This document shows positions 3,452-53,580 of a stretch of 64,000 nt of DNA, piece by piece. A program made the translations under genes and the position numbers. A model generated the notes under the pieces. It was not told the origin of the DNA, searched no databases, and saw only the letters and a list, made by a program, of their open reading frames with translations. Each line of letters opens with the position of its first letter. Position 1 is the first letter of the stretch. Origin of the DNA: an uncultured Bacilli bacterium (GTDB lineage: Bacteria; Bacillota_I; Bacilli_A; ML615J-28; CAG-698); the NCBI GenBank assembly GCA_947627195.1, contig CANQVC010000001.1, positions 99,671-163,670 of the forward strand, read 5' to 3'.

Positions 3452-3653
3452 TATAATAATAGGAAATAATTGATTGTTAAAAGTAAAAAATCTAATTTTG
3501 TCTAAATCGTTTTCATTTGATTTTTTCCAAAAAAAGGGAGTTAAACGTTTTAATTTCATTGATTTTTAAAAAGAATTATGATAGAATATATTAAAATACC
3601 ATGATGAAAAAAGCACTAATATGGTATTTGTATATGTTCAGAAGGAGGAAAAA

Positions 3654-30238: not shown

Positions 30239-30250
30239 TTGGAGGTTTAT

Positions 30251-32578
30251 ATGAAACAAGAAAAATTAGAAAAAATTCTTCAAGAAAGTCTTTATGTTCA
30301 TAAAGAAATACCTGAAGAAAATGAAGAAAATGGTGCCTATAATAAATGGTTAAAAAAAGAAGTAAAAAACAAATTAATTCTTTTTAAATGTGATAATAAA
30401 AATATCGAAAAAGTTATTTTAAATGGTAGAGGTAAAGTTACAATTGATAATGAAACTTTTCCTTATCGAACACTTAAAATAGAAACAAATACCGATATAG
30501 AAAATGTTTATCCAAGACCTAATACAGCAATTAAAATATCATTTGATGAAATTGATTTATCGAATTATAATCGTATTAGTGTATTAGTTTATCCAAAAGC
30601 TATCGGATATCATAATTTTTATTTTCATTTTACAACAGGAAATACAGGATATGAACTACTTCATGCTCCAAGTTTAATACCTAATCAATGGAATCATGTA
30701 GTATGGGAAATTAATAATTTAAAAAGAGATAAAGTTAATCATTTATCAATTGCTCCTTTTTTAATGGGATGTCCACCTGAAGCAAAAGAAGATTATGTTA
30801 TATATATCAAAGATATAACTGTTGAAGAAGTAGATAAAACTTATGAAAAAGGATGGGATTTAGAAGATAGAATTGCTTATTCTCATAGTGGTTATCAAAC
30901 AAATTCATTAAAACAAGCAATTATTCAAGGAAATTTTAGTGATAATTTACCTTATTTTTATCTTTGTGATGAAAATAATAATATTGTTTTTAAAGACAAA
31001 ATTAAAAAAGAAATGAGTAATTTAGGTACTTATTACATATTAGATTTTACTGATTTAAAAGTAGAAGGTAATTATTATATTAAAATAAATGATCAAAAAA
31101 CACCTTTATTTCCTATATCAAATGTACCTTTCTTAAGTCCTTTATGGAAAAGCATTAATTTTTTACGTAGTTTAAGATGTGGAGAAAATATCGATGGTGT
31201 TCATAGTTCATGTCATTTAAATTGCCGCAGTGTTCATCCTGATGGAAGAACAGTACCTAATTTTGGGGGCTGGCATGATGCAGGTGATGTATCACAATTT
31301 GAAATATGTACAGCAGAAATGGCTCATGCATTACTTGATACAGCCGAACAAATTAAAAATATTGATAAATTACTTTATGAAAGATTATTAGAAGAAGCTA
31401 AAGTCGGTGTCGAATGGTTATTAAGAACAAGATTTGGTGATGGATATCGAGCATTAGCAGTTAGTTATTCAATATGGCGTAAAAATGTTTTAACTATCGA
31501 TAACCAATCTATATCAATAAGTAAAGCTGAAAATGGACCATTTGAAAACTTTTTAAGTGCCGCTTGTTTAGCTGTTGCAGGAAGATTGTATCAAGAAAGT
31601 GATTCGGTATTTGCTAATTGGTGTGAAAGAATAGCCATTGAAGATTTTAATTTTGCGAAAGATGGTTATGAAAAAGGTCTTTATACTAAGAGATGGGGAC
31701 CAAATATAGATTGTATAGTTGCAGGAATTGGCGCATTAGCTGCTGTTGAATTATATGTTCTAACTAAGGATGAATCGTATTTATCTATTATTGAAAAATA
31801 TGGAAATATAATATTATCATGTCAAGAAAAAGAATTTCCTAATTGGCAAATACCAATTCGTGGCTTTTTTTATGAAGATACCAATCATACCAAAGTTTTA
31901 TCATATGAACATCGTGGACATGAACAAACTCCAATACAAGCATTAGCTAGAATGTGTGAAGTATTACCAAATCATAAAGATTTTAATAAGTGGCAAGAAA
32001 GTTTAAAATTATATCGTGAATATATATTGAAAACTATAAATTATACATCACCATATTATTTATTACCAAGTACTATTTATCAATTAGATAAAATAAACAT
32101 TGATAGATTTACAATTCCCTCAACATGTTCGAAAGATGATGCTTTAAATGTTTTAATCAAACAAGCAAAAAATGGAATAAAATTAAATGATAATGTTTAT
32201 TTAAGAATTTTTCCAATTGCCTATCAAAGAAGAGGTTTTCATGCAACATTATTAAGTAAAACTAAAGCAGTAAGTATGATTGCGAAAGTACTAAAAGATA
32301 ATGATTTAAAAGAAATTGTCTATAAACAAATTGAATGGATATTAGGTAATAATCCATTTTCCTCATCAACAATGTTTGGCGAAGGATATAATTATCATCC
32401 ATTATATGTTGCTTTTTCAAAACAAATTGTTGGGGCATTGCCTGTTGGTATTAAAACATATGAAAATGATGATGAACCATATTGGCCTACAATAAATAAT
32501 GCAGTTTATAAAGAAATATGGGGACATACTACAGGTAAATTTATTTGGGTGTTAGCTGATATTTATAATATGTTATAA
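30251..32578 (+). CDS. Glycoside hydrolase family 9-like enzyme with an N-terminal Ig-like (CelD_N-type) domain and no signal peptide
   Basis: GH9 hallmark FGGWHDAGD. Ig-like YSHSGYQTNSLKQAIIQ precedes the catalytic domain. GGAGG is 7 nt before the ATG at 30251; the track's start at 30239 overlaps the previous stop. A terminator follows. Confidence 0.55.
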   Translation: MKQEKLEKILQESLYVHKEIPEENEENGAYNKWLKKEVKNKLILFKCDNKNIEKVILNGRGKVTIDNETFPYRTLKIETNTDIENVYPRPNTAIKISFDEIDLSNYNRISVLVYPKAIGYHNFYFHFTTGNTGYELLHAPSLIPNQWNHVVWEINNLKRDKVNHLSIAPFLMGCPPEAKEDYVIYIKDITVEEVDKTYEKGWDLEDRIAYSHSGYQTNSLKQAIIQGNFSDNLPYFYLCDENNNIVFKDKIKKEMSNLGTYYILDFTDLKVEGNYYIKINDQKTPLFPISNVPFLSPLWKSINFLRSLRCGENIDGVHSSCHLNCRSVHPDGRTVPNFGGWHDAGDVSQFEICTAEMAHALLDTAEQIKNIDKLLYERLLEEAKVGVEWLLRTRFGDGYRALAVSYSIWRKNVLTIDNQSISISKAENGPFENFLSAACLAVAGRLYQESDSVFANWCERIAIEDFNFAKDGYEKGLYTKRWGPNIDCIVAGIGALAAVELYVLTKDESYLSIIEKYGNIILSCQEKEFPNWQIPIRGFFYEDTNHTKVLSYEHRGHEQTPIQALARMCEVLPNHKDFNKWQESLKLYREYILKTINYTSPYYLLPSTIYQLDKINIDRFTIPSTCSKDDALNVLIKQAKNGIKLNDNVYLRIFPIAYQRRGFHATLLSKTKAVSMIAKVLKDNDLKEIVYKQIEWILGNNPFSSSTMFGEGYNYHPLYVAFSKQIVGALPVGIKTYENDDEPYWPTINNAVYKEIWGHTTGKFIWVLADIYNML

Positions 32579-36278: not shown

Positions 36279-38345
36279 ATGGAAAATAAATGGACAAATA
36301 TATTTAATAAACTAAAAATCATTTTAAAAAGATATGCATTATTAATTTCTTTTGTTTTATTAACAATTTTTTATGAATTATTAGGTGTTGCTGTTACATT
36401 TCATAAGTTCTATATCCGTGATCCTAGAATTTTATTTATTTATCTTAGTTTAGCATCGGTTTTAATTTGTTTATTACCAAAACAAAAAATACGTTACATT
36501 TGTTGTTCGATATTATTAGCGATAACAGGAATTGTCAATTTATTATTTATTGTTGTTTATAAAATGACAGGAACTATTTTTGATTTTGGGATGTTAAACT
36601 TAAGAAAAGATGCCATGGGAATTATTGAATCTTTACCAATCCCTTTTCTATTTACATTTTTATTTGGTTTATCTTTTTCCCTTTATTTAGTATTTGGTAA
36701 AAAATATTTAAATTATTTACCTGAAATTAAAATTACTAAATTAAAAACTGCTATTAATTTATTTTTAATTATAATATTAATAATAACTAATGTTATAGTT
36801 GTTATATCATTAAATAATGTAACAACAAAAGCATCAGAAGTAGAACGATTATATGAAAAAGATGAATTAGGATATACTGAACTTGGAATAACTTCAACTG
36901 TAATAAATGAATTTTATAAAGGCTTATTTTTTAATAATGTTGATATGGGAGATGAACAAGAAATAGCTGATTTCTTATATCAAGATGACCATATTTATTA
37001 TGGATCTAAAGAAGCTAATCCTAATAATATTGATCGTTCTAATTATAATGTCATTACAATATTAGCTGAATCTTTAGAATGGTTTTCTTTTATAGAAGAT
37101 TTAGATAAATATCCTAATGGATATAATTTAGAAGATCCTACTGTTTTAGAAAGTCCAAATTTATATAAAAATTTATATGATTTTTATAATCGTAGTATAG
37201 TAATGAATCAATTTTATGCTCGAGAAAAAACTGACATATCGGAAAACTTAAGTATTATTGGTAATTATCCAACTGATGCTTATATAAATTATGATTTCCC
37301 TTATAATACTAATCCTTTTACTCTACCTAATGTATTAAAATCATTAGATGATGATATTTTATGTAAGTCATATCATAATGGTTTAAGAGGATATTATAAT
37401 CGTAATATTTGTCATTTGTCATTAGGATTTGAAGAATTTGTTGATACGGTGACAATGGAAAGTAAATTTAATATGAAAAATTATATTCCAACTGGGGAAA
37501 GAAATTTAGATAGTGAAATGATTTCATCTTGTAAAGAAGAAATGTTTCCTTTGGATAGAAGATTTTATACATATATTACAAGTATTACGATGCATGGACA
37601 ATATACATTTCGCAATAATTTAGATAATAAAGGTTATTATGATTATTTAGATAGTATTGGGGTAAAGGAACAATTTGGTAAAGGAAAAGATGATGAAAAT
37701 AAAAATATTTTTCGTAATTATTGTGCAGCAGCATTAGAATTTGATCGAGCAATTGGCAAGTTATGGGAAATATTAGAAGAAACAGGATTATCTAAAAATA
37801 CTATTGTTGTTATATTTGGTGATCATAATGCTTATTATCAAGGTTTAAGTAATTATGTCAAACAAATATATGATACAAATGACCATCATTATACTGAATT
37901 ATTTCGCATTCCTTTAATGATTTATGTACCTGATATGCCTCATCAAGTAATTGATAAATTTTGTTATACTGCAGATATTGTACCAACATTATTTGATTTA
38001 TTAGGTATAAATTTTTATGAAAATATGTATTTTGGTCATTCCATTTTTAGTGATGAAGAAAGTATTTTATATTCAAGAGCTTATAATGTCTTTATTACTA
38101 ATCATATCTTTTTTCCAAATCTTAATAAAATCTTATATTTAGAAGATGGATATGATAAAGAATATCTAAATGATATTGAAAATAGAGCTGTTAAGATTAT
38201 GACAAAACTTGGATATATTAATCGTATATTTTATAATGATTATTTTGGTATTAAATCTCTTGATAATAATGATAATCCAATTAAGAAAAATGAAATTATA
38301 TTTTATGAACATTTGAAAGCAATAAATAATGGAGAAGATTTATGA
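36279..38345 (+). CDS. LtaS-family sulfatase-superfamily enzyme, paralogue of 33419..35473
   Basis: Same motifs (NVITILAESLEWFSF, REKTDISE, TMHGQ, FGDHN). Collinear with the paralogue from MENKW (the track's start at 36255 is a TTG). Confidence 0.7.
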   Translation: MENKWTNIFNKLKIILKRYALLISFVLLTIFYELLGVAVTFHKFYIRDPRILFIYLSLASVLICLLPKQKIRYICCSILLAITGIVNLLFIVVYKMTGTIFDFGMLNLRKDAMGIIESLPIPFLFTFLFGLSFSLYLVFGKKYLNYLPEIKITKLKTAINLFLIIILIITNVIVVISLNNVTTKASEVERLYEKDELGYTELGITSTVINEFYKGLFFNNVDMGDEQEIADFLYQDDHIYYGSKEANPNNIDRSNYNVITILAESLEWFSFIEDLDKYPNGYNLEDPTVLESPNLYKNLYDFYNRSIVMNQFYAREKTDISENLSIIGNYPTDAYINYDFPYNTNPFTLPNVLKSLDDDILCKSYHNGLRGYYNRNICHLSLGFEEFVDTVTMESKFNMKNYIPTGERNLDSEMISSCKEEMFPLDRRFYTYITSITMHGQYTFRNNLDNKGYYDYLDSIGVKEQFGKGKDDENKNIFRNYCAAALEFDRAIGKLWEILEETGLSKNTIVVIFGDHNAYYQGLSNYVKQIYDTNDHHYTELFRIPLMIYVPDMPHQVIDKFCYTADIVPTLFDLLGINFYENMYFGHSIFSDEESILYSRAYNVFITNHIFFPNLNKILYLEDGYDKEYLNDIENRAVKIMTKLGYINRIFYNDYFGIKSLDNNDNPIKKNEIIFYEHLKAINNGEDL

Positions 38346-38992
38346 ACAATATTATAAATAATAATAATATTATAAATAATAATAATATTATAAATAATAA
38401 TAATATAAATAATATTAGATGTTTAATTGCTAAATATATTCCTAAATCAATTGAAGAAGAAAAAGATAAAGAATTAATTATGTCTTTAATTGATGTTTAT
38501 CAAGATAAACTACTGTATCGTAGTTTATCTTTTGCTCATTTCACTAGTTCATCAATGCTATTTAATTCTAATTTAACAAAATTATTAATGGTAAATCATA
38601 AAATATATCAAAGTTGGTCATGGACTGGTGGACATGTTGATGGTGATAATGATTTTTTCCATGTTGCCATAAAAGAAGCAAAAGAAGAAACAGGTATAAA
38701 AAATCTTACCCCTATTACAAATGATATAATTTCTTTAGAAGTTTTACCAGTTAATGGTCATTATAAGGGAAATGAATATATAAGTAGTCATTTGCATTTA
38801 AATGTCACATATGGTTTTATTGTTTCTGAAAATGAAAAACTAAAAATTAATAAGCAAGAAAATACTGGGGTTAAATGGTTTAATATTAATAATATTAATG
38901 ATATTAATAATATTAATAATATTGTTACAGAAGAAAAAATGATTCCAATATATCAAAAAATTATCAAAAGAGTAATAAATTATAATAAATAA
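38342..38992 (+). CDS. Nudix hydrolase with poly-Asn/Ile low-complexity termini
   Basis: Nudix-box-like GGHVDGDNDFFHVAIKEAKEETGI (G.5[E/D].7[R/K]E..EE.G). ATGA overlap with the LtaS-like stop. The N-terminal (IINNNN)x3 is encoded by an 18-bp tandem repeat. Confidence 0.55.
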   Translation: MNNIINNNNIINNNNIINNNNINNIRCLIAKYIPKSIEEEKDKELIMSLIDVYQDKLLYRSLSFAHFTSSSMLFNSNLTKLLMVNHKIYQSWSWTGGHVDGDNDFFHVAIKEAKEETGIKNLTPITNDIISLEVLPVNGHYKGNEYISSHLHLNVTYGFIVSENEKLKINKQENTGVKWFNINNINDINNINNIVTEEKMIPIYQKIIKRVINYNK

Positions 38993-39081
38993 TTAAGAAA
39001 TTATAGGAAATATTCACTGAATATTATAAAATAGTTTTAATTAATCATAAAAATTGTAAAACGTTTTATCAAAAAAATAGT

Positions 39082-39109
39082 TTGAGTATCTAGCAAAATA
39101 TGATAAAAT
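39082..39109 (+). promoter_or_regulatory. Putative sigma-A promoter for the riboswitch and pur operon
   Basis: -35 TTGAGT (39082-87), a 16-nt spacer, extended -10 TGaTAAAAT (39101-09). The predicted TSS is a few nt before the riboswitch P1. Confidence 0.45.
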
Positions 39110-39118
39110 AAATATGTA

Positions 39119-39186
39119 TCTTGTATAATGGCTTTAATTGGTAAGCGAGTCTCTACCCTACGACCGTAAATTGTAGGACTACAAGA
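39119..39186 (+). ncRNA. Purine riboswitch aptamer, guanine-type (C in J3-1)
   Basis: P1 tcttgt/acaaga. J1-2 ATAAT. P2 ggctt..aagc. J2-3 GAGTCTCTAC (compare xpt AGTTTCTAC). P3 cctac-GACCGTAAATT-gtagg (compare CACCGTAAAT). J3-1 ACT with C at the specificity position. It lies 5' of purE as in other Firmicutes. Confidence 0.75.
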
Positions 39187-39255
39187 AACATAAATTAGGT
39201 TCATTTTACTGTGCCTATTTTTGTGTTTTTCTTGCTTACTTAGAAAGGAAGCAAA

Positions 39256-39426
39256 ATGAACAATTCAAAATTGAACAATTCAAGAATGAATAACCAAAAA
39301 ATGAATAATTCAAAAATAAACACATTTAATTATATCTATTTATGTAGAAAACAAACAACTCATTTTGTGAGCCTTTTTAATAACGCCAAATATTTAAAAT
39401 TAACAAACATTAGAACATTAGACTAA
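39256..39426 (+). CDS. Possible 56-aa Asn/Lys-rich leader ORF between the riboswitch and purE (uncertain whether translated)
   Basis: RBS GAAAGGAAG is 6 nt before the ATG at 39256. MNNSKLNNSRMNNQKMNNSKIN... is encoded by four degenerate copies of an AATGAAYAAYTCAARA unit of about 15 nt. Its stop codon lies inside the 5' arm of the downstream terminator hairpin. Confidence 0.3.
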   Translation: MNNSKLNNSRMNNQKMNNSKINTFNYIYLCRKQTTHFVSLFNNAKYLKLTNIRTLD

Positions 39427-39447
39427 ATAATGCTAATGTTTTTTTAC
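39414..39447 (+). terminator. Terminator/attenuator hairpin immediately upstream of the purE RBS
   Basis: aacattag (39414-21), an 11-nt loop, ctaatgtt (39433-40), then TTTTTTT. The purE SD GGGAGG is at 39455-60. Confidence 0.5.
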
Positions 39448-39466
39448 TTTTTTATGGGAGGAAAAT

Positions 39467-39943
39467 ATGGCAAAAGTAAAAGTAATCATGGGATCAATTA
39501 GTGACTATGAAGTAATGAAAGAAGCAGAACCAATTTTTAAAGAATTAGGTGTTGAATACGAAATGGAAGTAGTCAGTGCTCATCGTACACCTGATAAAAT
39601 GTATGAATTTGCGAAAAGTGCTAGAAAAAATGGTTATAAAGTTATAATTGCTGGTGCAGGTGGAGCTGCTCATTTACCAGGAATGGTGGCATCAATGACT
39701 ACACTACCTGTAATAGGCGTTCCTGTACAAACTAAAGCATTACATGGATTAGATTCTCTTTTATCAATTGTACAAATGCCTGCAGGTATTCCTGTTGCTA
39801 CAGTTGCCATAAATAATGCCAAAAATGCTGCTTTATTAGCTTGTCAAATATTATCTATTGAAGATAAAAATTTAGAAATAAAATTAGAAGAATATCGTAA
39901 TTCATTAAAAGAAAAGGTGTTATCAAGTGTCATCAATCAATAA
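39467..39943 (+). CDS. purE: N5-carboxyaminoimidazole ribonucleotide mutase (class I PurE)
   Basis: [16 protein letters not shown]..., [14 protein letters not shown] (PurE signature). Followed by purK. Confidence 0.9.
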
Positions 39944-41039
39944 AACTTTGGGAATTATTGGTGCTGGTCAATTAGGAATGATGATTGTTGAAGCGGCAAA
40001 AAAAAGAGGAATGAATACAATTGTTTTAGATCCTAATCCTAATTCACCAGCTTTTCGTATTGCTGATAAATATATAAATAAAAGTTTTTCTGATATTAAT
40101 GCTGTAACTGAATTATGTAAAAATTCAGATATTGTAACATATGAATTCGAAAATGTTGATGATGTTATAATTAATGCGGTATGTGAAAAATATAATATAC
40201 CTCAAGGAGCAATGCCTTTATATTATTCTAAGAATCGTTTACGCGAAAAAAAATTAGCCAATTCATGTAAAATTCCTACTGCTAGTTTTCAAAGTGTTCG
40301 CAAAAAAGAAGATTTAATAAATGGAATTAAAAAATTTGGTTATCCTTGTATTTTAAAAACTACAGAAGATGGTTATGATGGCAAAGGACAATTATTTATT
40401 CATAACGAAGAAGATTTACCTAAAGCATATGAATTTATTCAAATAAATTGTATGTTAATGGAATGTATATTAGAAAAAGTTGTTTCATTTGATTTTGAAG
40501 TATCATCTATATCTTTTCGTAGTTTAGATTCATCATTTACTATGTTACCAATTGTTAGAAATATTCATAAAAATGGTATCCTCAATTTAACAATAGCTCC
40601 TGCTATTTTATCTAAACAATTGGAAAATAAAATAATTGAAGCAAGTAGATCTTTTATGGAAATGAATAATTTCTATGGTATTATGACTATTGAATTCTTT
40701 GTTCAAGGAAATGATATATTTTTTAATGAAATGGCACCTAGACCACATAATTCAGGACATTATTCCATTGAAGCTTGTAATTATTCCCAATATGATTTAT
40801 TAATAATGTCATTATTAGGAGAAAAATTACCTCAAGATATTACCTTAAAACCTTGTGTCATGAAAAATATTTTAGGTTATAATCTAGATTTTGTTGATAA
40901 AATTAAAAAAATGAATTTAAAAGATACATATATTCATATGTATGGTAAAAAAGAAGTAATGCCTAATCGAAAAATGGGACACATTACATTTATTGGTTAT
41001 GATTTAGAAAAATATAAAAATACAATTGAAAATATATAA
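39927..41039 (+). CDS. purK: N5-carboxyaminoimidazole ribonucleotide synthase (ATP-grasp)
   Basis: [13 protein letters not shown]-terminus and ATP-grasp body. GTG start 6 nt after AAAAGGTG. 17-nt overlap with purE. Confidence 0.85.
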
Positions 41040-41057
41040 AAATGAAAGAAGGAAAAC

Positions 41058-44000
41058 ATGAATTGCCGAATATTCGTTGAAAAAAAGCCAGGCTTTCGTA
41101 TTGAAAGTGAAGATTTATTAAAAAGTTTATGTGAAAAATTAAAATTAAATTTAACATCACTTCGTATTATTCAAATATATGATATTTTTCATATTGAAAA
41201 AGAATTATTAGAAAAAGCTAAATATACTGTTTTTGGCGAAATTGTTACCGATATTGTTTATGATAAATTAGATTTAAATGGATTACAATATATTGCTGTT
41301 GAAAGCTTGCCTGGTCAATTTGATCAAAGAGCAAGTAGTGCAATGGAATGTTTATCTCTTCTTGAACCTTCTTCAAAAGCTATTGTTCGTTCAGGTAAAC
41401 TAATTATTTTTAATGATAAATTAACTAATGATAATATTAAAGCAATTAAGAAATTTTATATTAATGAAATTGAATCTCGTGAAAAAGACATGACAATATT
41501 GCAAGAAAATGAATTTGTTAATGTGTCTAATGTTCATGAAATGAATAATTTTATAAATTTAAATAAAGAACAATTAGAGAATATTCGTTTATCTATGGGA
41601 CTAGCTATGTCAATAGAAGATTTAATGTTTATTCAAGATTATTTTAAACAAGAAAATAGAAATCCAATTGAAACTGAAATTAGAGTTCTTGATACTTATT
41701 GGTCGGATCATTGTCGCCATACAACATTTGAAACAGAATTAGTCGATATTAATATTGAAGATGGATATTTTAAAAAACAAATCGAAAATACCATTAATGA
41801 ATATTATCAAATGCGTAATGAAATAAATAATAATAAAAAAGTAACATTAATGGATATGGCAACGATTTGTGGGAAATATTTGCGTAAAAAAGGTTTATTA
41901 AATGATTTAGAAATAAGTGATGAAATAAATGCTTGTAGTGTTTATGTTGATGTATTAGTAAATCAAAAGAAAGAAAAATGGTTAATGATGTTTAAGAATG
42001 AAACACATAATCATCCAACAGAAATTGAACCATTTGGTGGAGCATCAACATGTATTGGTGGGGCTATTAGAGATCCATTAAGTGGTAGAAGTTATGTTTA
42101 TCAAGCAATGAGAATTACAGGGGCAGGTGATATTTTTACCCCATATGATAAAACTTTACCAGGTAAATTACCTCAAGCCCAAATATCGAAAACAGCTGCT
42201 AGTGGTTATTCTTCATATGGCAATCAAATTGGTTTAGCTACAACATTTGTTCATGAATTATACCATCCTGGATATGTTGCCAAACGTTTAGAAATTGGTG
42301 CTGTTGTAGGGGCTGTTAAAGCTAGTGATTTAAAAAGAGAAAAACCTAAAAAAGGTGACTTAATTATTTTATTTGGGGGAGCAACAGGACGTGATGGAAT
42401 TGGTGGAGCAACTGGAAGTAGTAAAGAACATACTGAAAGTTCTTTAGAAGTTTGTGCATCAGAAGTACAAAAAGGTAATGCTCCCGAAGAAAGAAAAATT
42501 CAAAGATTATTCCGTCGTCAAGAAGTAACAAAATTAATTAAAAAATCGAATGACTTTGGTGCTGGTGGTGTTAGTGTCGCTATTGGTGAACTTGCTGATG
42601 GACTTAATATTTATTTAGATCGTGTTCCATTAAAATATTCAGGACTAAATGCAACTGAAATTGCGATTAGTGAATCACAAGAAAGAATGAGTGTTGTTAT
42701 AGATCCTCTAGATAAAGATGAATTCTTTAAATATTGTCATGAAGAAAATTTAACAGCAGTAGTGATTGCGGAAGTAACAGATAATAATCGTTTAGTTATG
42801 TATTATCATGATAAAAAAGTTGTCGATATTTCTCGTGATTTTATTAATACAAATGGTGTTAGACAAAAAAATAATGTCTATATTAAATCACCTATAAATA
42901 AAGATTTTCGTAAAGATAGTGAAAATAATCACAATATAAAAGAACAATGGCTTAATAAATTACAAGATTTAAATGTCATGATGCAAAAAGGACTTGGCGA
43001 AATGTTTGATGCTTCAATTGGGGCATCAACCGTCCTAATGCCATATGGTGGTAAATATCAATTAACAGAAGCTCAAGCATCTGTTGAAACATTCCCTGTA
43101 TTAGATGGACATACAACTACAGCTAGTGTTTTATCATATGGATTTGATCCATATATATCAGAAATAAGTCCTTATCATGGTGCTGTTTATGCTATTTTAT
43201 CTTCAGTATGTAAAGTTGTTGCAACAGGTGCTGATTATAAAAATATAAGATTTACTTTCCAAGAATATTTTGAAAGATTAAATAAAGATGAAAATAAATG
43301 GGGTAAACCAACTGCAGCTTTACTTGGTTCAATATATGCGCAAATGAAATTAGGACTACCTTCAGTTGGTGGTAAAGATTCAATGAGTGGCACATTCAAA
43401 GATTTAAATGTCCCACCTACATTAGTATCTTTTGCCATAACTACTGAAGATACATCAAATATAATTAGTCCTGAATTTAAAGGTGTTGGTAATTATATTT
43501 ATTATTTACCACTAAAAGATGATAAAGATTACTTACCTGATTTTGATATTGAAAAGAAGTATTTCACATTTATTCATGAACATATTGTTAATAAAGAAAT
43601 ATTATCTTGTTATGCTTTAGGTTTTGGTGGCATTTGTGAAGCAATATCAAAAATGAGTTTTGGTAATAAAATTGGTTGTGAATTATATATTGATAATAAT
43701 TTATTTGATAAAGGATATGGTAGTTTTATATTTGAATCTAATTGTGAAATTAAAGATGAAATGGCTATTTTAATTGGTAAAACTATTCCAAGTCAAGTTA
43801 AAATTAAAGATGTCATTTTTGATATAAATGATTTACTTAAAGCAAATATGGAGAAATATGATCATATTTATCCTGCATATGGTAAAAATATGTTTAATTT
43901 TACTCCTATGAAAGTTAATCAAGAAAATGATAAAGCTATTTATAATGTTTATCCATATGAAAAAGTAGATGAAGTTTTAGTTTATATTCCAGTATTTCCA

Positions 44001-44774
44001 GGAACTAATTGTAGTATTGATACAAAGAAAGCATTTATTGACGCTGGGGCAAAAGTTATCGTCGATACATTTTGTAATCAAACTGCAAAAGACATTGATG
44101 AATCAATTGAAAGAATGGCTAAATACATTGAACAATGTCATATATTAGTGTTTGCTGGAGGATTTTCATCAGGAGATGAACCTGATGGAAGTGGTAAATT
44201 TATTGCTAATGTCATTCGTAATGACAAAATTTACCAAAGTATTCGTCATTTAATTCAAAGAAAAGGACTAATCTTAGGTATATGTAATGGTTTCCAAGCT
44301 CTTGTTAAATCAGGATTATTGCCATATGGTAATATTGAATCATTGAATGAAAATAGTCCAACATTATTTAAAAATGATATAAATCGCCATATTTCTAAAA
44401 TTGTATCAACTGTTGTGAAAACAAATAAATCGCCATGGTTATCTTCATTTAAAGTAGGAGAAATACATAATATTCCTATTTCTCATGGTGAAGGTAAATT
44501 TGTTATCAATCAACAGTTAGCTAAAGAATTATTTATTAATAATCAAGTTGCTTTTTTATATAGTGATGAAGATGGCAATGTAACTAATGACAGTCTTATT
44601 AATCCTAATGGATCTCATTATGGAATTGAAGGAATAATTTCTAAAGATGGCTTAATATTAGGTAAAATGGGACATAGTGAAAGAAAAGGGAATAATTTAT
44701 ATAAAAATATTTCGGGAAATAAAGAACAAGATATTTTTAGAAATGCAGTAAAGTATTTTAAAAAAGAGGAGTAA
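41058..44774 (+). CDS. purL: Phosphoribosylformylglycinamidine synthase, large single-chain form (PurS-like, FGAM synthetase and glutaminase domains fused)
   Basis: 1238 aa. The central PurM-like domains and the C-terminal class-I glutamine amidotransferase domain ([13 protein letters not shown]) are in one ORF. No separate purS or purQ in the operon. Confidence 0.85.
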
Positions 44775-44778
44775 AATC

Positions 44779-45489
44779 ATGAAAAAACTAAATTTATTGT
44801 ATGAAGGAAAAGCAAAACAAGTTTATGCTACAGATGAAGAAAATGTCATCATTGTTCATTACAAAGATGATGCTACAGCTTATAATGGAATAAAAAAAGC
44901 TAGTATTGCTAATAAAGGTATTTTAAATAATGAAATTAGCACAATCTTATTTAATAAATTAAAAGAAAAAGGTATTCCAACTCATTTTATTGAAAAAATT
45001 AATGAACGTGACCAAGTATGTAAACTTGTTAAAATATTACCTTTAGAAGTTATTGTTCGTAATTTAATTGCAGGAAGTATGTCTAAAAGATTAGGTATTC
45101 CTGAAGGTACTAAACCTTCTAATGTTATATTAGAAATTTGTTACAAAAATGATGAATTAGGAGATCCATTAATTAATGATCATCATGCTGTTGCATTAGG
45201 ATTATGTACATATGAAGAATTAAATGAAGTTTATTCTTTAACTCGTCAAATCAATGAAATATTAATTGATATATTTAAGAAAATTAATATTATTTTAGTT
45301 GATTTTAAAATTGAATTTGGTAAAACAGCAGATGGTAAAATTGTCCTTGCTGATGAAATTTCTCCTGATACTGCTAGATTATGGGATAAAGATACTTTAA
45401 CTAAATTAGATAAAGATCGTTTCCGTCGTGATTTAGGTAAAGTAGAAGAAGCTTATGTTGAAATATTAAATCGTTTAAAATCATTATAG
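44779..45489 (+). CDS. purC: SAICAR synthetase
   Basis: [29 protein letters not shown], canonical PurC N-terminus. Confidence 0.9.
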
Positions 45490-45502
45490 AAGGAAGTTAA
45501 TA

Positions 45503-46900
45503 ATGCAAGATATTTTTGATCAATTACACGAAGAGTGTGGCGTATTTGGAATATATAATATAAATCATGCAGCAAATCTTACTTACCTTGGTTTGCATTC
45601 ATTGCAACATCGTGGACAAGAAGGATGTGGAATTGTATGTAATGATCATGGCGAAATGTCCAGAATGAAAGGACAAGGACTTGTTACTGAAGTATTTAGT
45701 GCTAGTCAACTAGAAAAAATGAAAGGAAATTGTGCTATTGGTCATGTTCGTTATTCCACAACAGGTGGAAATGTGATTGAAAATGTCCAACCATTTTTAT
45801 TCCATCATCATACTGGAGAATTTGCTTTAGCTCATAATGGTAATTTAGTAAATTCTAATGAATTAAGACTTTATTTAGAAAATAAAGGTAGTATTTTTCA
45901 ATCAACTTCTGATTCAGAAATATTAGCTCATCTAATGAAAAAAAATGCTGATAGTGAAAATAGAATTGTTAATATTATTGATGCTTTAAATATGTTAGAA
46001 GGAGCTTTTGCCTTTGTTATATTAACAAAAGATAAATTATATGCATGTCGTGATAAATATGGCTTTCGTCCTTTAGTAATTGGTAAAAAAGATGATGGAT
46101 ATGTCGTATCAAGTGAAACTTGTGGACTTGATATTGTTGGGGCAACTTATATTCGCGATTTAGAACCTGGGGAAGTTGTTTGTTTTTCCCAAGATGGAAT
46201 GAAAAGTTACCAATATTCACAATTTAAACATTATAAAATGTGTGCAATGGAATATATTTATTTTTCTCGTCCCGATAGTAATTTAGAAGGATTAAATTGT
46301 CATACATTTCGTCGTATTTCGGGAAAAATTTTGGCTCAAGAATCACCAGTTGATGCCGATATTGTCATTGGTGTTCCTGATTCATCTTTATCTGCTGCAA
46401 TGGGATATGCTGATGAAAGTAAAATTCCATATGAAATGGGATTGATTAAAAATAAATATGTTGGTAGAACTTTTATTCAACCATCACAAGAATTACGTGA
46501 ACGTGGTGTATTAATGAAATTAAGTCCTATTCAATCTGTTGTTTCAGGTAAAAGAATTGTTTTAATTGACGATTCATTAGTTAGAGGAACAACATCAAAA
46601 AGGATTGTTCGCATGTTAAAAGAAGCAGGGGCAAAAGAAGTACATCTACGTATTGCTTCTCCACAAATTATTAGTCCATGTTTTTATGGCGTTGATATGT
46701 CAACTTATGATGAATTAATGAGTGCATGCATGTCATTAGATGAAATGCAAAAAGAATTAGATGTTGAATCTTTAAAATTCCTTTCGATTGAAGGATTATA
46801 TAAAGCAGCATCACGTAAAGAACTTTGTACTGCATGCTTTACCAATGTTTATCCAACAAATACTTATAATTCAATGAAAAATACAAATAAGAAATCATAA
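45503..46900 (+). CDS. purF: Amidophosphoribosyltransferase with an 11-residue propeptide and Fe-S cluster cysteines (B. subtilis type)
   Basis: [18 protein letters not shown]: the Ntn-Cys follows an 11-aa propeptide. PRTase motif [13 protein letters not shown]-terminal Cys ligands ...SPCFYGVDM... and ...CTACFT... Confidence 0.9.
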
Positions 46901-46910
46901 AGGAGTAATT

Positions 46911-47933
46911 ATGTCAAAAAAATATCAAGCATCGGGAGTTAATCTAGAAGCTGGTTATGAAGTAGTTAGAAGAATAAAAAAACATGTTCAATCTACTAAT
47001 CGTTTAGGTACACTTGGTACAATTGGTGCTTTTGGTGGTATGTTTGATTTATCAGAACTAAAGATGAAAGAACCAGTTTTAGTTAGTGGCACTGATGGCG
47101 TTGGAACTAAATTAAAATTAGCTTTTGCGATGGATAAACATGATACCATTGGTATTGATGCTGTTGCGATGTGTGTTAATGATGTTTTAGCTCAAGGAGC
47201 AGAACCACTATTCTTTTTAGATTATGTTGCTGTTGGTAAAAATCATCCTGAAAAAATCGAAATGATTGTGAAAGGGGTTTGTGATGGATGTTTACAAGCA
47301 GGTTGTGCATTAATTGGTGGTGAAACCGCCGAAATGCCAGGAATGTATGATGAAGATGAATATGATATAGCTGGTTTTACAGTAGGAGCTGTGGAAAAAA
47401 GTAAATTAATTGATGGAAGCAAAGTAAATGTTGGTGATGTTTTAATTGGTTTAGCTTCAAGTGGTGTTCATTCAAATGGCTTTTCTTTAGTTCGTAAGAT
47501 TATTAAAGATAATAATTTAGATTTACATCAATATTATGAAGAATTAAATGATAAACTTGGTAATGTCTTACTTGCTCCAACAAAAATATATGTTAAACCT
47601 GTCTTAAATTTATTTAAGAAATTTGATATTCATGCTATTGCTCATATAACAGGAGGAGGATTTGATGAAAATATTCCCCGTATATTGCATGATGGTCAAG
47701 GATTTAAAGTTTATACAAACAATTGGCCAATTTTACCAATATTTACCTTTTTAGAAAATAAAGGAAATATTGAACATCGCGAAATGTTTAATGTCTTTAA
47801 CATGGGTATAGGTATGGTATTAGCTACTAATCCAAATGAAAAAGATGATATTATTAAATCACTAAAACAAGATGGAATTGATGCTTATATCATTGGCGAA
47901 GTAACTAATAATAATAAAATTGAAATATTATAA
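46911..47933 (+). CDS. purM: AIR synthetase
   Basis: [15 protein letters not shown]..., GTDGVGTK..., canonical PurM. Confidence 0.9.
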
Positions 47934-47943
47934 GGTGAATAAA

Positions 47944-48516
47944 ATGAAAAAATTAGCTGTTTTTGCTAGTGGTAATGGTGGTAATTTACAATCAATTTTA
48001 GAAGCTGCAAGAGATAAAATAATTGATGCTCAAGTTGTTTTAGTAGTATGTGATAATCCTAATGCATATTGCATCAAAAGAGCAAAAAATTTTAATATTG
48101 AATGTCTTGTCTTTAATCCTCAAGATTTCACATCAAAAAAGTTACTTGAAGATTATATTTTAAATAAAATTGAACCATTAAATCTTGATTATATTTGCCT
48201 TGCAGGATATATGCGTATTTTATCTAAAAGATTTGTTCATAAATATCAAGATAAAATAATAAACATTCACCCTTCTTTATTACCATCATTTAAAGGAGCA
48301 CATGGAATTTATGATGCTTTTCAATATGGGGTTAAAATAATGGGTGTTACAATTCATTATGTTGATGAAGAAATTGATCATGGAAAAATTATTGCCCAAG
48401 AATGTTTTCATGTTCAAGATGATGATACACTTGAAACTGTTGAAGAAAAAATACATGATATTGAACATCCATTGTATGTGAAAGTATTAAAAATGTTATG
48501 TAATAAAGGAGAGTAA
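47944..48516 (+). CDS. purN: GAR formyltransferase
   Basis: MKKLAVFASGNGGNLQ, INIHPSLLPSFKG. The track's start at 47920 is a TTG inside purM; the ATG at 47944 is 5 nt after AAGGTGA. Confidence 0.85.
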   Translation: MKKLAVFASGNGGNLQSILEAARDKIIDAQVVLVVCDNPNAYCIKRAKNFNIECLVFNPQDFTSKKLLEDYILNKIEPLNLDYICLAGYMRILSKRFVHKYQDKIINIHPSLLPSFKGAHGIYDAFQYGVKIMGVTIHYVDEEIDHGKIIAQECFHVQDDDTLETVEEKIHDIEHPLYVKVLKMLCNKGE

Positions 48517-48524
48517 AATAACAT

Positions 48525-50060
48525 ATGAAAAGAGCTTTAATTAGTGTAAGTGATAAAACAGGATTAGTTGCTTTTTGTCAAGAACTTGTGAAATTAGATT
48601 ATCAAATTATTTCCACAGGTGGAACAAAGAAAACTTTAGAAGAAAATGGTATTAAAGTAATTGGTATTAGTGAAGTAACTAATTTCCCTGAAATATTAGA
48701 TGGTAGAGTAAAAACTCTTCATCCTAATGTTCATGGGGCATTATTAGCTAAAAGAAATAATCCTGAACATATGAATACTTTAAAAGAACATCATATAGAT
48801 TTAATTGATATGGTTGTTGTTAATCTATATCCTTTTAAAAAGACTATTGAAAGAGAAGATTGTACTCTTGATTTAGCAATCGAAAATATTGACATTGGTG
48901 GTCCAAGCATGTTAAGAAGTGCTGCCAAAAACTTTGAAAGTGTTACAGTAATATGTGATAGCAATGATTATGATAAAGTAATTCAAGAAATCAAAGAAAA
49001 TGGCGATACAACATATGATACAAGATTTTATTTAGCTGGTAAAGTATTTCGTCATACAGCAAGTTATGATACAATGATTAGTTCATACATCATGAAACAA
49101 ACTAATTTAGAGATTCCTGAAAAATTAAATCTTTCATTTGATTTAAAGCAAACATTACGTTATGGAGAAAATCCTCATCAAAAAGCCGCTTTTTATCAAG
49201 GTGAAAATACATCTTATTCAATGGCTTATGCTAATCAATTATGGGGTAAAGAATTATCTTATAATAATATTCAAGATGCTAATGCGGCATTAAATATTGT
49301 TCATGAATTTGATTCACCATGTGTTGTTGGTTTAAAACATATGAATCCATGTGGTGTTGGTATAGCTAATACAATTGATGAAGCTTATGATAAAGCTTAT
49401 ATGAGTGACCCTGTTTCTATTTTTGGTGGTATAATTGCCATGAATAGAGAAGTAACAGTAACAATGGCTAAGAAAATGAGTGAAATTTTCTTAGAAATTA
49501 TTCTTGCTCCATCATATAATGAAGAAGCATTAAAAATATTAAAGAAAAAGAAAAACATTCGTCTAATGACATATGATATGAATTCATCATTCAATGCTGA
49601 TAAAATGTATACATTTGTTAATGGTGGATTACTAGTCCAAGAAAGAGATACTTTAAATGTTATACGTGACAATATTAAAGTAGTTACAAAACTTTCACCA
49701 ACAAAAGAAGAATTAGAACAAATGATTTTTGGCTTTGCCGTATGTAAATATGTAAAATCAAATGCCATTACGGTTGTGAAAGACTATATGACAGTAGGTG
49801 TTGGGGCTGGACAAATGAATCGTGTTGGAAGTGCGCATATTGCTTTAGAACAAGCTAAAGCAAATGGTCATACAAAAGATTTAATTCTTGCCAGTGATGC
49901 CTTTTTCCCATTTGATGACGTTGTGAAAATGGCAAAAGAATATAATGTAACATGCATTATTCAACCAGGTGGATCCATAAAAGATGAAGATTCCATTCGT
50001 GCTTGCGATGAAGCAGGAATCAAAATGATATTTACAGGCATTCGCCATTTTAGACACTAA
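48525..50060 (+). CDS. purH: Bifunctional AICAR transformylase / IMP cyclohydrolase
   Basis: [15 protein letters not shown] (MGS-like IMPCH domain) plus C-terminal AICARFT domain. 511 aa. Confidence 0.9.
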
Positions 50061-51331
50061 TGAAAGTTTTAGTTGTTGGTAAAGGGGGTCGAGAACATGC
50101 TATTGTTAAAGCGATATCTTTATCAAAGCAAGTTGATAAATTATATTGTGCCCCTGGAAATCCTGGAATGAGTAACATCGCTACACTTGTTCCCATTCAA
50201 GAAACTGATATAACAAATTTAGTTGAATTTGCGAAAAGAGAAAAAATAGATTTAACTGTTGTCGGTCCTGAAGCTTCATTAGCATTAGGAATAGTTGACG
50301 CCTTTAAAAAAGAAAATTTAAATATTTTTGGTCCAACAAAAGAAGCAACACAAATTGAATCAAGCAAAGAATTTGCAAAAAAGATTATGAAAAAATATCA
50401 TATTCCCACTGCTAATTATGAAAGTTTTAATTCATTTGATAATGCTGATCAATATTTAAAAAAGGCAAAATATCCAATAGTTATTAAGTTTGATGGACTT
50501 GCTGCTGGTAAAGGTGTTATTATAGCTAATAATTATGAAGAAGCAAACAAAGCAATAGAAGATATATTTATTAATAAAGTATTTGGAGATGGAAATATTA
50601 TTATTGAAGAATTTTTAGAAGGACCTGAATTTTCTTTAATGGCTTTTGTAGGTAATAATAAAGTATATCCAATGGTTTTAGCCCAAGATCATAAAAGAGC
50701 TTATGACCATGATTTAGGACCAAATACAGGTGGTATGGGGGCTTATTCACCAGTTGATTTCATAACTGATGAAGATATAAATTATGCCATTGAAAAAATT
50801 ATGAAACCAACTATAAATGGTTTATGGCAAGAAGGAATCCATTATGAGGGTGTCTTATATGGTGGATTAATGAAAACTAAAGATGGCATAAAAGTTATTG
50901 AATTTAATGCTAGATTTGGTGATCCTGAAACTGAAGTAGTATTGCCTAGATTAACTTCAGATATTGTTTCTATTTTTATGGGTATTTCCTCAAATAATCA
51001 TAATTTTGATGTTAAATGGGCAAATGAAAAAACAGTAGGTGTTGTATTAGCATCTAAAGGATATCCAGGCAAATATCAATCAGGATTTTTAATTGAAGGA
51101 TTAGATAAAGTTGATGCTTTAGTTTATCATATGGGAACAAAATTAATTAATAATAATTATTATACAAATGGTGGAAGAGTATTATTTGTTGTGGCAAAAG
51201 GAAAAACAATTGATAAAGCTTTAGAAAAAGTTTATCAAGAAATAAATAAAATCCATTGTGATAACTTATATTATCGAACTGATATTGCTTATCAAGCTTT
51301 ATCTACTAAACGAGGAGAAAAAAATGATTGA
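50060..51331 (+). CDS. purD: GAR synthetase
   Basis: [18 protein letters not shown]-grasp. Start overlaps the purH stop (TAATG). Confidence 0.9.
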   Translation: MKVLVVGKGGREHAIVKAISLSKQVDKLYCAPGNPGMSNIATLVPIQETDITNLVEFAKREKIDLTVVGPEASLALGIVDAFKKENLNIFGPTKEATQIESSKEFAKKIMKKYHIPTANYESFNSFDNADQYLKKAKYPIVIKFDGLAAGKGVIIANNYEEANKAIEDIFINKVFGDGNIIIEEFLEGPEFSLMAFVGNNKVYPMVLAQDHKRAYDHDLGPNTGGMGAYSPVDFITDEDINYAIEKIMKPTINGLWQEGIHYEGVLYGGLMKTKDGIKVIEFNARFGDPETEVVLPRLTSDIVSIFMGISSNNHNFDVKWANEKTVGVVLASKGYPGKYQSGFLIEGLDKVDALVYHMGTKLINNNYYTNGGRVLFVVAKGKTIDKALEKVYQEINKIHCDNLYYRTDIAYQALSTKRGEKND

Positions 51332-52619
51332 AAGATATTCAAGACCAGAAATGAGAAAAATTTGGACTGATGAAAATAAATTTCAAACATATTTAAATGT
51401 TGAAATATTAGCATTAGAAGCTTTTAATAAATTAGGAGTTGTTCCAGAAAAAGATTTAGATCTTATTAAATCTAAAGCTAAATTTTCTGTTAATAGAATT
51501 AGTGAAATCGAACAAGAAACTAAACATGATGTCGTAGCATTCACAAGATGTGTCAGTGAATCATTAGGTGATGAAGCTAAATGGGTGCATTATGGTTTGA
51601 CATCAACAGATGTTGTTGATACAGCTAATGGGGCAATGATTAAAGAAGCTAATAACATTCTTGATAAAGATATTTTGTCTTTAATGAATATTTTAAAAGA
51701 AAAAGCATTACAATTTAAAGATACTCCTTGTATTGGTCGCACTCATGGTGTTCATGCTGATATTACAAGTTTTGGCTTAAAATGGGCATTATGGTATGAA
51801 GATATGAAACGTAATTATGAACGCTTTAATATGGCAAGACATGATATTGAAGCTGGAAAAATTAGTGGAGCTGTTGGTAATTTCGCAAATGCTCCAATGT
51901 TTGTTCAAGATTATGTATGTGAAAAGTTAAATATTACATCAAGTAAAATATCAACACAAACTTTACAAAGAGATCGTCATGCTTTTTATATGTCTGTATT
52001 AGCATTAATAGCTGCAACTTTAGAGAAAATTGCTACTGAATTTCGTCATTTACAAAGAACAGAAGTACGTGAAGTAGAAGAAGGATTTTCTAAAGGACAA
52101 AAAGGTTCAAGTGCAATGCCTCACAAAAGAAATCCTATTTCTAGTGAAAATATATGTGGATGTGCTAGAGTAATGAGAGGATATATGCTAACATTTTATG
52201 AAAATGTTGCATTATGGCATGAAAGAGATATTTCCCATTCATCAACTGAAAGAATCATATTGCCTGATGCTACAATGTTATTAGATTATATGATTAATAG
52301 AATGATTAATATTATAAAAAATCTTGGTGTTTTTGTTGATAACATGAAACAAAATATTTACAAAACTCATCATGTCATATTTGCCCAAAGAGTAATGACT
52401 AAATTAATTGATAAAGGCTTTACTAGGGAAAAAGCATATGATTACATTCAAAAATATGCAATGGAAAGTTGGACTAAACAGATTGATTTTAAAGATTTAT
52501 TATGGAATGATCAACTTGTTCAAGAAAAACTAACCAAAGATGAATATGAAAGTTGTTTCACATTAGAATATTATTTAAGAAATGTTGAAGCAATTTATCA
52601 AAGAATTGGAATATTATAA
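51324..52619 (+). CDS. purB: Adenylosuccinate lyase
   Basis: MIERYSRPEM canonical N-terminus. Fumarate-lyase signature GSSAMPHKRNP. The ATG at 51324 follows GAGGAGAAA; the track's start at 51258 has no RBS and overlaps purD by 74 nt. Confidence 0.9.
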   Translation: MIERYSRPEMRKIWTDENKFQTYLNVEILALEAFNKLGVVPEKDLDLIKSKAKFSVNRISEIEQETKHDVVAFTRCVSESLGDEAKWVHYGLTSTDVVDTANGAMIKEANNILDKDILSLMNILKEKALQFKDTPCIGRTHGVHADITSFGLKWALWYEDMKRNYERFNMARHDIEAGKISGAVGNFANAPMFVQDYVCEKLNITSSKISTQTLQRDRHAFYMSVLALIAATLEKIATEFRHLQRTEVREVEEGFSKGQKGSSAMPHKRNPISSENICGCARVMRGYMLTFYENVALWHERDISHSSTERIILPDATMLLDYMINRMINIIKNLGVFVDNMKQNIYKTHHVIFAQRVMTKLIDKGFTREKAYDYIQKYAMESWTKQIDFKDLLWNDQLVQEKLTKDEYESCFTLEYYLRNVEAIYQRIGIL

Positions 52620-52673: not shown

Positions 52674-52716
52674 AAACTATAGATAATCGTTTGATGATAC
52701 TTCTATAGTTTTTTTG
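52674..52716 (+). terminator. Rho-independent terminator ending the pur operon
   Basis: aaactatag (52674-82), a 20-nt loop, ctatagttt, then T7. Confidence 0.55.
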
Positions 52717-53556: not shown

Positions 53557-53580
53557 TGATTGTTTATAGGAAGGAAATAT

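Follow-up and report, generated by a model that had tools for sequence, protein, structure and literature searches.

The pur operon and its leader

We analysed a 64,000-nucleotide stretch of DNA (the window; 27% G+C) on contig CANQVC010000001.1 from an uncultured Bacilli bacterium, with attention to the leader of its purine biosynthesis (pur) operon. The operon lies on the + strand in the order purE-K-L-C-F-M-N-H-D-B, which covers the complete pathway to inosine monophosphate (IMP), and all ten genes score above their NCBIfam cut-offs (equivalog matches). It runs from the purE ATG at 39467 to 52619 and is closed by a terminator at 52674-52711, called by the relaxed hairpin-plus-U5 finder described below. 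The purE and purK genes overlap by 17 nt (39927-39943), with GTG as the purK start codon, and the overlap is identical in a sister species; such an overlap suggests translational coupling.

The leader upstream of purE holds, in order, a promoter, a guanine-class purine riboswitch aptamer, a first intrinsic terminator (T1), a Shine-Dalgarno (SD) sequence, a short open reading frame (the leader ORF) and a second intrinsic terminator (T2) (Table 1). The promoter has 9/12 consensus matches plus the TG of the extended -10 element, its predicted start site falls just upstream of the first aptamer stem (P1), and the promoter block is kept in the sister species. Consensus scanning found no promoter-like sites between T1 and purE, so transcription of purE has to pass both terminators.

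Several lineages supplied leaders for comparison. The window species occurs in four ENA assemblies, three of which (L001, L002 and L086) include an identical leader and one of which (L085) stops short of it. The sister species is represented by L083 and L089, whose PurK and PurE are 81% and 88% identical to those of the window. A PurE scan of species genomes found no close relative of the window (best identity 72%, with matches spread across phyla), and its one useful product was L033, with a PurE 63% identical to that of the window. L158, from a JGI metagenome, the variant group L159-162 and the ORF-less group L087/L088/L154 complete the set; the P0348 loci L163-166 have purE without any leader. 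As to labels, L033 is called Anaerotignum sp., and the closest named relatives of its PurE in the protein database, at 77-78% identity, are called Acholeplasmatales bacterium; the contig's label, or the past of its pur operon, may deserve a second look.

Table 1. Coordinates in the window of the pur leader features and of the operon
Feature	Coordinates	Strand	Description
Sigma-70-type promoter	39082..39109	+	-35 TTGAGT, 16-nt spacer, extended -10 TG-n-TAAAAT; consensus match only
Guanine-class purine riboswitch aptamer, stems P1/P2/P3	39118..39187	+	RF00167; C74 at 39179
T1, first intrinsic terminator	39188..39230	+	stem 39188-39226, core 39196-39217, tail UUUUUGUGUUUUU 39218-39230 (U5-GUG-U5)
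Switching segment X' UUCUUGCUUAC	39229..39239	+	complementary to P1-3' (CAAGAA 39182-87) and P2-3' (GGUAAGCGAG 39140-49)
Leader SD AAAGGAAG with 3' arm AAGCAA of the sequestering hairpin	39244..39254	+	SD 39244-39251, read from the sequence
Tandem repeat, unit AAAATGAACAATTCA	39253..39322	+	TRF: period 15, 4.7 copies, 76% matches, in frame
Leader ORF, 56 codons, peptide MNNSKLNNSRMNNQKMNNSKINTFNYIYLCRKQTTHFVSLFNNAKYLKLTNIRTLD	39256..39426	+	ATG 39256; stop TAA 39424-39426 in T2 loop
Conserved block ACAACTCATTTTGTGAG inside the ORF	39355..39371	+	identical in L083; related ACTTTTGTG in L033/L158
T2, second intrinsic terminator	39405..39445	+	two-tier hairpin 39405-39441, T7 run 39439-39445
purE SD and pur operon	39456..52619	+	SD GGGAGG 39456-61; purE ATG 39467

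A guanine aptamer followed by two terminators

RF00167 was the sole Rfam family matched in the whole window. The match (39101-39201) is full length (model positions 1-102) and scores 76.6 bits against a gathering score of 37 (E 7e-12), in line with a first-pass annotation of this DNA that had placed a well-formed guanine-type aptamer at 39119-39186. P1 pairs 39118-39125 with 39180-39187, the three-way junction core (UAUAAU..., GUCUCUACC, CCGUAAA) is present, and only three non-canonical pairs are flagged in the consensus alignment. The specificity position is a C, within GGACUAC; it is numbered C74 after the B. subtilis xpt aptamer. C marks the guanine class and U the adenine class, which assigns this aptamer to the guanine class. 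Scores in relatives are 75-85 bits (77.8 bits in L083). The window aptamer is a regular member of the family, with a predicted ligand response. From the end of P1 (39187) to the purE ATG we measured 279 nt, matching the approximately 280 nt noted in the first pass. An Rfam search of 39190-39470 in E-value mode found no second aptamer (best matches E of at least 1, far below gathering scores), so the leader as a whole is not a tandem riboswitch.

The first-pass annotation had treated the aptamer as lacking a terminator of its own, overlooking T1, which follows P1 directly and has a predicted folding free energy (dG) of -10.5 to -11.4. T1 also occurs in L083 (with one compensatory stem pair, G-C to A-U), L033 and L158. 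Its 5' arm UAGGUUCA resembles a degenerate copy of the aptamer 3' end UAGGACUACA, a likeness that may supply a T1 antiterminator. The hexamer UUCUUG (39229-34) is complementary to the P1 3' strand CAAGAA but lies 3' of the T1 U-tract; in L033 the T1 3' arm does pair with the P1 3' strand. Part of the 3' half of T1 (39202-39224) has a copy inside the leader ORF (39323-39345), a 23-nt direct repeat with 74% identity.

T2 (dG -8.8, U7) lies 20 nt before the purE start. The 8-bp stem and T7 run that had been proposed at 39414-39447 are present, the stem pairing AACATTAG (39414-39421) with CTAATGTT (39433-39440), but the hairpin is larger than proposed, with a second tier. The 8-nt arm AACATTAG is tandemly duplicated (39406-39421) and the 3' side (39428-39440) reads TAATG-CTAATG; the two-tier hairpin of the window species has thus grown by matching duplications on both arms. 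T2 occurs in all five ORF-bearing lineages as well as in the ORF-less lineage.

To calibrate these calls, we ran a relaxed hairpin-plus-U5 finder over the + strand of the window. There were nine matches, two in 60 kb of coding DNA and seven in 4 kb of intergenic DNA, and the seven comprise five directly behind gene ends (dG -7.9 to -12.5) together with T1 and T2. Both leader hairpins are therefore of gene-end terminator quality, termination itself being a prediction. A stricter scan that required at least three G-C pairs called no terminator in the leader.

A translatable leader ORF that runs into T2

The first-pass annotation had described a 56-codon ORF, a hairpin around a strong ribosome binding site and an overlap of the ORF's last codons with the T2 5' arm. 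All three were found: TTGCTT (39232-39237) pairs with AAGCAA (39249-39254) and encloses the SD AAAGGAAG, and the ORF's stop codon lies in the T2 loop. That annotation had also made conservation of the ORF in relatives a test of its reading. We find SD, ATG, short ORF and T2 in L083/L089, L033 and L158, and the same parts with altered geometry in L159-162, so that the order aptamer, T1, SD, short ORF, T2, purE is shared by the window and all of these loci. Bacillales loci from the PurE scan show the textbook layout with a single strong terminator.

The relatives differ in detail. L083/L089 have the same promoter block, aptamer and T1, an identical CUUGCUUAC, the SD AAGGAG and a 26-codon ORF (MKQQHFMKKNRRNTTHFVRVFNDAKH); its stop codon TAG closes the T2 5' arm, and the rest of T2 with its U7 tract and purE follow. 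L033 and L158 have a T2 of different sequence (ACAGGGCTTA/TAAGCTCTGT) and 28-codon ORFs, and in these the stop codon TAA opens the T2 3' arm. In the L159-162 variant a weak T1 is followed by an extra terminator, an SD and a 14-codon ORF. L087/L088/L154 carry aptamer, T1 and T2 in tandem, with approximately 10 nt between the terminators and no ORF.

The leader SD is kept in all ORF-bearing relatives in differing sequence (AAGGAG, GAGGTGG, AAGAGG), and an ATG stands at proper spacing 3' of a purine-rich SD in 5/5 lineages. Judged by dinucleotide shuffles, an uninterrupted frame between the ATG and T2 would arise by chance with a probability of 0.012 in the window, where 48 codons precede T2, 0.27 in L083 and 0.28 in L033. 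Indels of 60 nt and 30 nt between window and L083 leave the shared block ACAACTCATTTTGTGAG in frame. The product itself is unconserved: its length is 26, 28, 28 and 14 amino acids in L083, L033, L158 and L159, the N-terminal halves are unrelated among lineages, and a T-x-F-V motif is weakly shared. Of the changed codons in and around the shared block, window versus L083, 1/7 is synonymous. The block does not have the look of protein constraint and is conserved as nucleotides rather than as peptide; polymerase pausing or base pairing with another segment are possible roles. A metagenome scan with the 17-mer ACAACTCATTTTGTGAG gave 64 matches, all of them chance matches, against which blastn with the leader aligned at most 21-35 nt.

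A regulatory leader ORF would be expected to show just the pattern seen across these lineages: translatability up to T2 is conserved and the product is not. Two marks of an attenuator, a short SD-led ORF overlapping a terminator and its retention in relatives, are present. No run of regulatory codons is shared across the lineages, enrichment in Asn and Gln being confined to the window repeat, so the leader is not a classical amino-acid attenuator. Attenuators of the pyrBI type do not call for such a run.

The first-pass annotation had seen the ORF as built from four copies of a 15-nt unit. The repeat is real, but it covers just the first approximately 22 codons. It is identical in the three other assemblies of the window species and absent from L083/L089, L033, L158 and L159, L083 having roughly two degenerate units at the site. 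Tandem repeats in other ORFs of the window have periods that are nearly all multiples of three (3, 9, 12, 15, 18, 21), the exception being a weak 2.1-copy array of period 22 (37515-37562); two intergenic tandem repeats have periods of 13 and 20. The period of 15 in the leader thus counts in favour of a genuine reading frame. Similar AAT-rich in-frame repeats occur in ordinary genes of the genome, also at 53901-53943 and 59987-60024, so that this genome seems prone to in-frame AAT-rich expansion. By this comparison, the 15-nt Asn-rich array is a species-specific in-frame expansion tolerated by a leader whose product would not matter, and it has no conserved role.

A candidate switching segment between aptamer and leader SD

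Directly behind T1 lies a pyrimidine-rich segment, X', that is complementary to the 3' strands of both P1 and P2. Its conserved portion CUUGCUUAC (39231-39239) is complementary to the P2 3' strand and can instead pair beside the leader SD, with AAGCAA. The string CTTGCTTAC occurs once in the window, with 0.27 occurrences expected in 128 kb; L083 has it unchanged, and equivalents are present in L159 and in L033/L158 (UUGCUUAUCAC, with the literal anti-SD AUCACC inside it). Complementarity of X' with the P2 3' strand is kept in five lineages, with 93% of the cells in the 12-bp helix paired. The alternative partner of X' is AAGCAA in the window (with UUGCUU) and GGUGGUAA in L033 (with UUAUCACC), and in L083 the alternative is a 12-bp helix between the U-tract and the SD.

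L159 differs in that X' has a terminator arm, and not the SD, as its alternative partner. The extra terminator of this group (1242-1277 in L159, and the same in L160-L162) has the arms GCUUACCA and UGGUAAGC followed by U7; UGGUAAGC is a copy of the L2/P2-3' strand of the aptamer, and a second UGCUUACCA precedes the leader SD. Aptamer strand and terminator arm would therefore compete for the same partner. Since the X' strand pairs with a terminator arm here, we regard it as used as a switch in this clade.

Minimum free energy (MFE) folds of three species contain the helix between the P2 3' strand and X' when unconstrained, and the hairpin between X' and the SD when the aptamer is enforced. Between enforcing the aptamer and enforcing the X' helix, predicted SD accessibility rises from 0.27 to 0.42 in the window and from 0.18 to 0.47 in L083, and just from 0.29 to 0.33 in L033/L158. 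These models make aptamer control of leader translation plausible, and with the conserved complementarity they suggest that the aptamer probably also governs passage of T2. Full-length MFE folding of the window had also paired the SD with CCUUUUUAA (39378-86), a candidate that we rejected, L083 having GGG there.

T2 itself has a candidate RNA partner only where the ORF is missing. In L087 (1948-1972), L088 (1948-1972) and L154 (1048-1066) the T2 5' arm (GGAGACU) is complementary to the aptamer junction J2/3 AAGUCUCUA, with dG of -10.0, -9.9 and -6.5 kcal/mol, respectively, close to that of T2. This pairing is plausible as an RNA antiterminator that would read the ligand pocket directly, and suggests that in the ORF-less lineage a single aptamer governs both terminators purely through RNA pairing. 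No conserved antiterminator of this sort emerged in the four lineages with an ORF that were tested; their best partners (-2.9 to -6.1, versus -6.9 to -14.4 for the T2 duplexes) fall at unrelated places.

A two-checkpoint model and its rivals

We propose, at a probability of about 0.5, that the leader is a two-checkpoint attenuator in which a translating ribosome melts T2, possibly under aptamer control. A guanine riboswitch of the ordinary kind, with T1 immediately 3' of the aptamer, would form the first checkpoint. Polymerases that get past T1 would transcribe the SD-led short ORF, whose frame extends into T2 with the stop codon at the apex of the hairpin. A ribosome on the last codons would cover the T2 5' arm, the hairpin could not form and transcription would continue into purE; with no closely following ribosome, T2 would terminate. 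At low guanine the 3' strands of P1 and P2, released from the unfolded aptamer, would pair with X' and leave the leader SD free, and at high guanine the aptamer would be folded and X' could pair next to or over the SD. Two considerations point to the ribosome. T2 lacks an RNA partner in the ORF-bearing lineages and there is no second aptamer, which makes the ribosome the simplest relief of T2; and because the ORF stops at the T2 apex, a terminating ribosome would cover the whole 5' arm. The full relay, in which one guanine aptamer gates T1 directly and T2 indirectly through exposure of the leader SD, with the ribosome as T2 antiterminator, we put forward tentatively and at less than even odds.

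A two-layer attenuator had been suggested in the first-pass annotation. It is the best reading of the comparative data, given the recurrent order of parts and the lack of an RNA antiterminator for T2, but the Asn/Lys-rich repeats to which that annotation drew attention are not part of the conserved device. Its observation is thus confirmed and its interpretation partly supported.

Several points weigh against the two-checkpoint attenuator. First, covariation in the X' helix amounts to one compensatory pair among five sequences, which is indistinguishable from shuffles (207/500). Second, the shifts in SD accessibility are modest in all folds, and when the aptamer is unfolded its freed 5' strands can themselves pair with the SD region. 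Third, thermodynamic searches, which are equally uninformative on bona fide Bacillales switches, found no strong T1 antiterminator in the window or L083. Fourth, the ORF-bearing sample amounts to only about three independent clades, window and L083 being close kin and likewise L033 and L158, and in L159-162 the ORF leaves 12 nt between its stop codon and T2, a distance at the limit of what a ribosome footprint covers. Fifth, once the frame reaches T2 a stop codon within T2 is expected by chance (3/3 frames in the window and 2/3 in L083); most frames stop there anyway, and we therefore give that detail alone no weight. Finally, antitermination by the ribosome needs one that trails RNA polymerase closely, which is reportedly not the rule in Bacillus subtilis.

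A possible objection, which we consider unlikely to be correct, is that the ORF is incidental: T2 would be a partial constitutive terminator, or one opened by a trans-acting factor (an RNA-binding protein or small RNA), and the SD-like tract would mimic the P2 3' strand in an RNA-only switch. The SD regions GGAAGCAA and GGUGGUAA do resemble GGUAAGCAA of that strand, the equivalent strand of L159 is a terminator arm rather than an SD, the sister lineage functions with no ORF at all, third codon positions are not favoured among the substitutions in the conserved block, and each of the short ORFs of L083 and L033 has a chance of approximately 0.27 of being open. The correctly spaced ATG 3' of a purine tract in every ORF-bearing lineage argues otherwise, as do the improbably open window frame with its frame-preserving indels and the distribution of RNA partners for T2, which are missing in ORF-bearing lineages and present in ORF-less ones. 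Moreover, a terminator of gene-end quality directly 5' of an essential biosynthetic operon needs a relief mechanism.

The ORF and T2 would have the same geometry if the second layer sensed a guanine-independent signal through the speed of leader translation or transcription, be it charging of Asn, Gln or other tRNAs or nucleotide-sensitive pausing, with the aptamer not controlling the SD. In E. coli pyrBI and pyrE, nucleotide-sensitive pausing of the polymerase lets the ribosome catch up. In the window leader 15/56 residues are Asn or Gln, where the background is 10% (binomial 4e-4), the fractions in L083, L033 and L158 are 5/26, 6/28 and 7/28, and purine synthesis consumes glutamine; but the Asn excess of the window stems from its species-specific repeat, the L159 leader has 1/14, and no run of one regulatory codon is common to the lineages. 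The ORF is likewise rich in A in the window (50%) and L083 (46%), a richness that is lost in L033 (37% A, 39% T), and we accordingly rejected ATP sensing through an A-rich leader as a general feature. An independent signal would also leave the conserved complementarity between X' and the aptamer unexplained, and we judge it a little less probable again than an incidental ORF.

It seems improbable that the product of the leader ORF is a small peptide with a function of its own, made under guanine control, and that T2 is simply the ORF's terminator. In favour are the SD and ATG, the terminator that follows the stop codon and the weak T-x-F-V motif, but length ranges from 14 to 56 amino acids, N-terminal halves are unrelated, substitutions are mostly non-synonymous, and with no promoter between T2 and purE the operon would need read-through of T2 anyway. 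Least credible of all is the first-pass alternative that the 15-nt repeats are PurR-box-like operators forming a roadblock or repressor-binding array: by eye the units match the PurBox consensus of B. subtilis, AWWWCCGAACWWT, at 10-11/13 positions, mostly A/T, but the CCG core is unmatched, the repeats are absent from the closest relative and all others and lie approximately 150 nt 3' of the promoter inside a transcribed ORF, and AAT-rich tandem arrays are found at other places in this genome.

The usual description of a riboswitch is one aptamer with one expression platform acting on the main gene, and leader-peptide attenuators are treated as a separate class. If the two-checkpoint attenuator is confirmed, a metabolite-sensing RNA would hand a decision to a ribosome that controls a second terminator, joining the two classes, and the relay, if true, would give the aptamer a second, later readout of its ligand, with repression multiplied. 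The leader would be a natural two-stage design by which a costly pathway of ten genes is repressed more tightly or placed under two inputs, and a compact part for synthetic circuits; it would also imply that transcription and translation are closely coupled in an uncultured lineage of low GC. Together with the L159 variant, the sister lineage that lacks the ORF would add a small evolutionary series in which the switching strand serves in turn as antiterminator, anti-SD or arm of a terminator. Failing confirmation, the leader would be an ordinary guanine riboswitch plus an extra, leaky terminator.

Relation to known systems

The window leader shares with the Bacillus pur/xpt guanine riboswitch its aptamer class, the C74, its location 5' of purE and the terminator that immediately follows the aptamer. 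Bacillales leaders have a single strong terminator (-17 to -28 kcal/mol), the 5' arm of which can pair with the P1 3' strand, and no SD-led ORF that ends in a second terminator; the window has two terminators and a leader ORF, and its segment complementary to P1 and P2 is located 3' of T1.

By analogy, the window leader would work most like pyrBI or pyrE of E. coli placed behind a riboswitch. There, a leader or upstream ORF (pyrL in pyrBI) is translated into or up to the terminator, and a closely trailing ribosome blocks the hairpin. Read-through into a nucleotide-biosynthesis gene by means of a ribosome at the terminator, as proposed for the window, is common to both. The pyrBI and pyrE systems rely on UTP-sensitive pausing, have no aptamer and belong to a proteobacterial host, whereas the window host is low-GC and of monoderm type and its riboswitch precedes the ORF and may gate the ORF's SD.

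Tandem riboswitches for guanine and phosphoribosyl pyrophosphate (PRPP) precede purine biosynthesis genes (Sherlock et al. 2018, PMC5912903; review PMC9481103). They too have two modules in series with the guanine aptamer first, but their second module is a PRPP aptamer where the window has an ORF. The review of tandem riboswitch architectures makes no mention of leader peptides or upstream ORFs (PMC9481103). In Salmonella, the tandem attenuators of mgtA (a Mg2+ leader with mgtL) and mgtCBR (PMC3641672) likewise have long leaders in which an RNA that responds to a ligand is joined to short ORFs, and translation of these ORFs determines whether transcription continues downstream. There is no homology with the window leader: their aptamer classes are others, they act through Rho or other structures, they sense through Pro, Trp or A-rich stretches, and they are proteobacterial.

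Ribosome-mediated attenuation is documented in B. subtilis for bmrCD (PMC4191407) and tlrB/yxjB, the latter with NusG-dependent pausing (PMC6851288), so translation of a leader peptide can control an intrinsic terminator in a low-GC Gram-positive. In bmrCD and tlrB, antibiotic-stalled ribosomes favour an antiterminator; in the window the ribosome would itself cover the terminator, and the operon is biosynthetic. The SAM-II riboswitch of Sinorhizobium meliloti metA sequesters an SD 5' of an intrinsic terminator, beyond which lies the real start (PMC9373788). Translation and termination are interlinked there as they may be in the window, but the aptamer is different and the SD serves the distant main ORF, whereas in the window it belongs to a leader ORF of its own that stops within the terminator. 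Within an incomplete coverage of the literature, we found no description of the arrangement of riboswitch, leader ORF and second terminator for purine riboswitches.

Other features of the window

A perfect 12-bp palindrome, TAAAACGTTTTA, lies at 39057-39068, 14 nt 5' of the -35 hexamer. It is a candidate transcription-factor operator, which would make a third layer of control. A 17-nt block, ATTGTAAAACGTTTTAT, is identical in the window and L083, and AAATCGTTTTC is found 5' of the L033 and L158 promoters.

Further upstream, the ORF at 38342-38992 (216 amino acids, without NCBIfam match) contains Asn/Ile-rich tandem repeats, one of period 18 with 3.3 perfect copies (38348-38406) and one of period 9 with 4.8 copies (38881-38923). 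Large ORFs at 414-3413, 3621-8153, 26166-28877, 30239-32578 and 53560-55584 (674-1510 amino acids) match no NCBIfam family at E <= 1e-10. A 2542-amino-acid ORF occupies 8403-16031. The window also encodes two LtaS-like proteins, which point to a monoderm, Mollicutes- or Bacillota-like organism, and an OppF-like ATPase (23858-25768) that has a long N-terminal extension and also matches the Mycoplasma-type model MMSYN1_0168.

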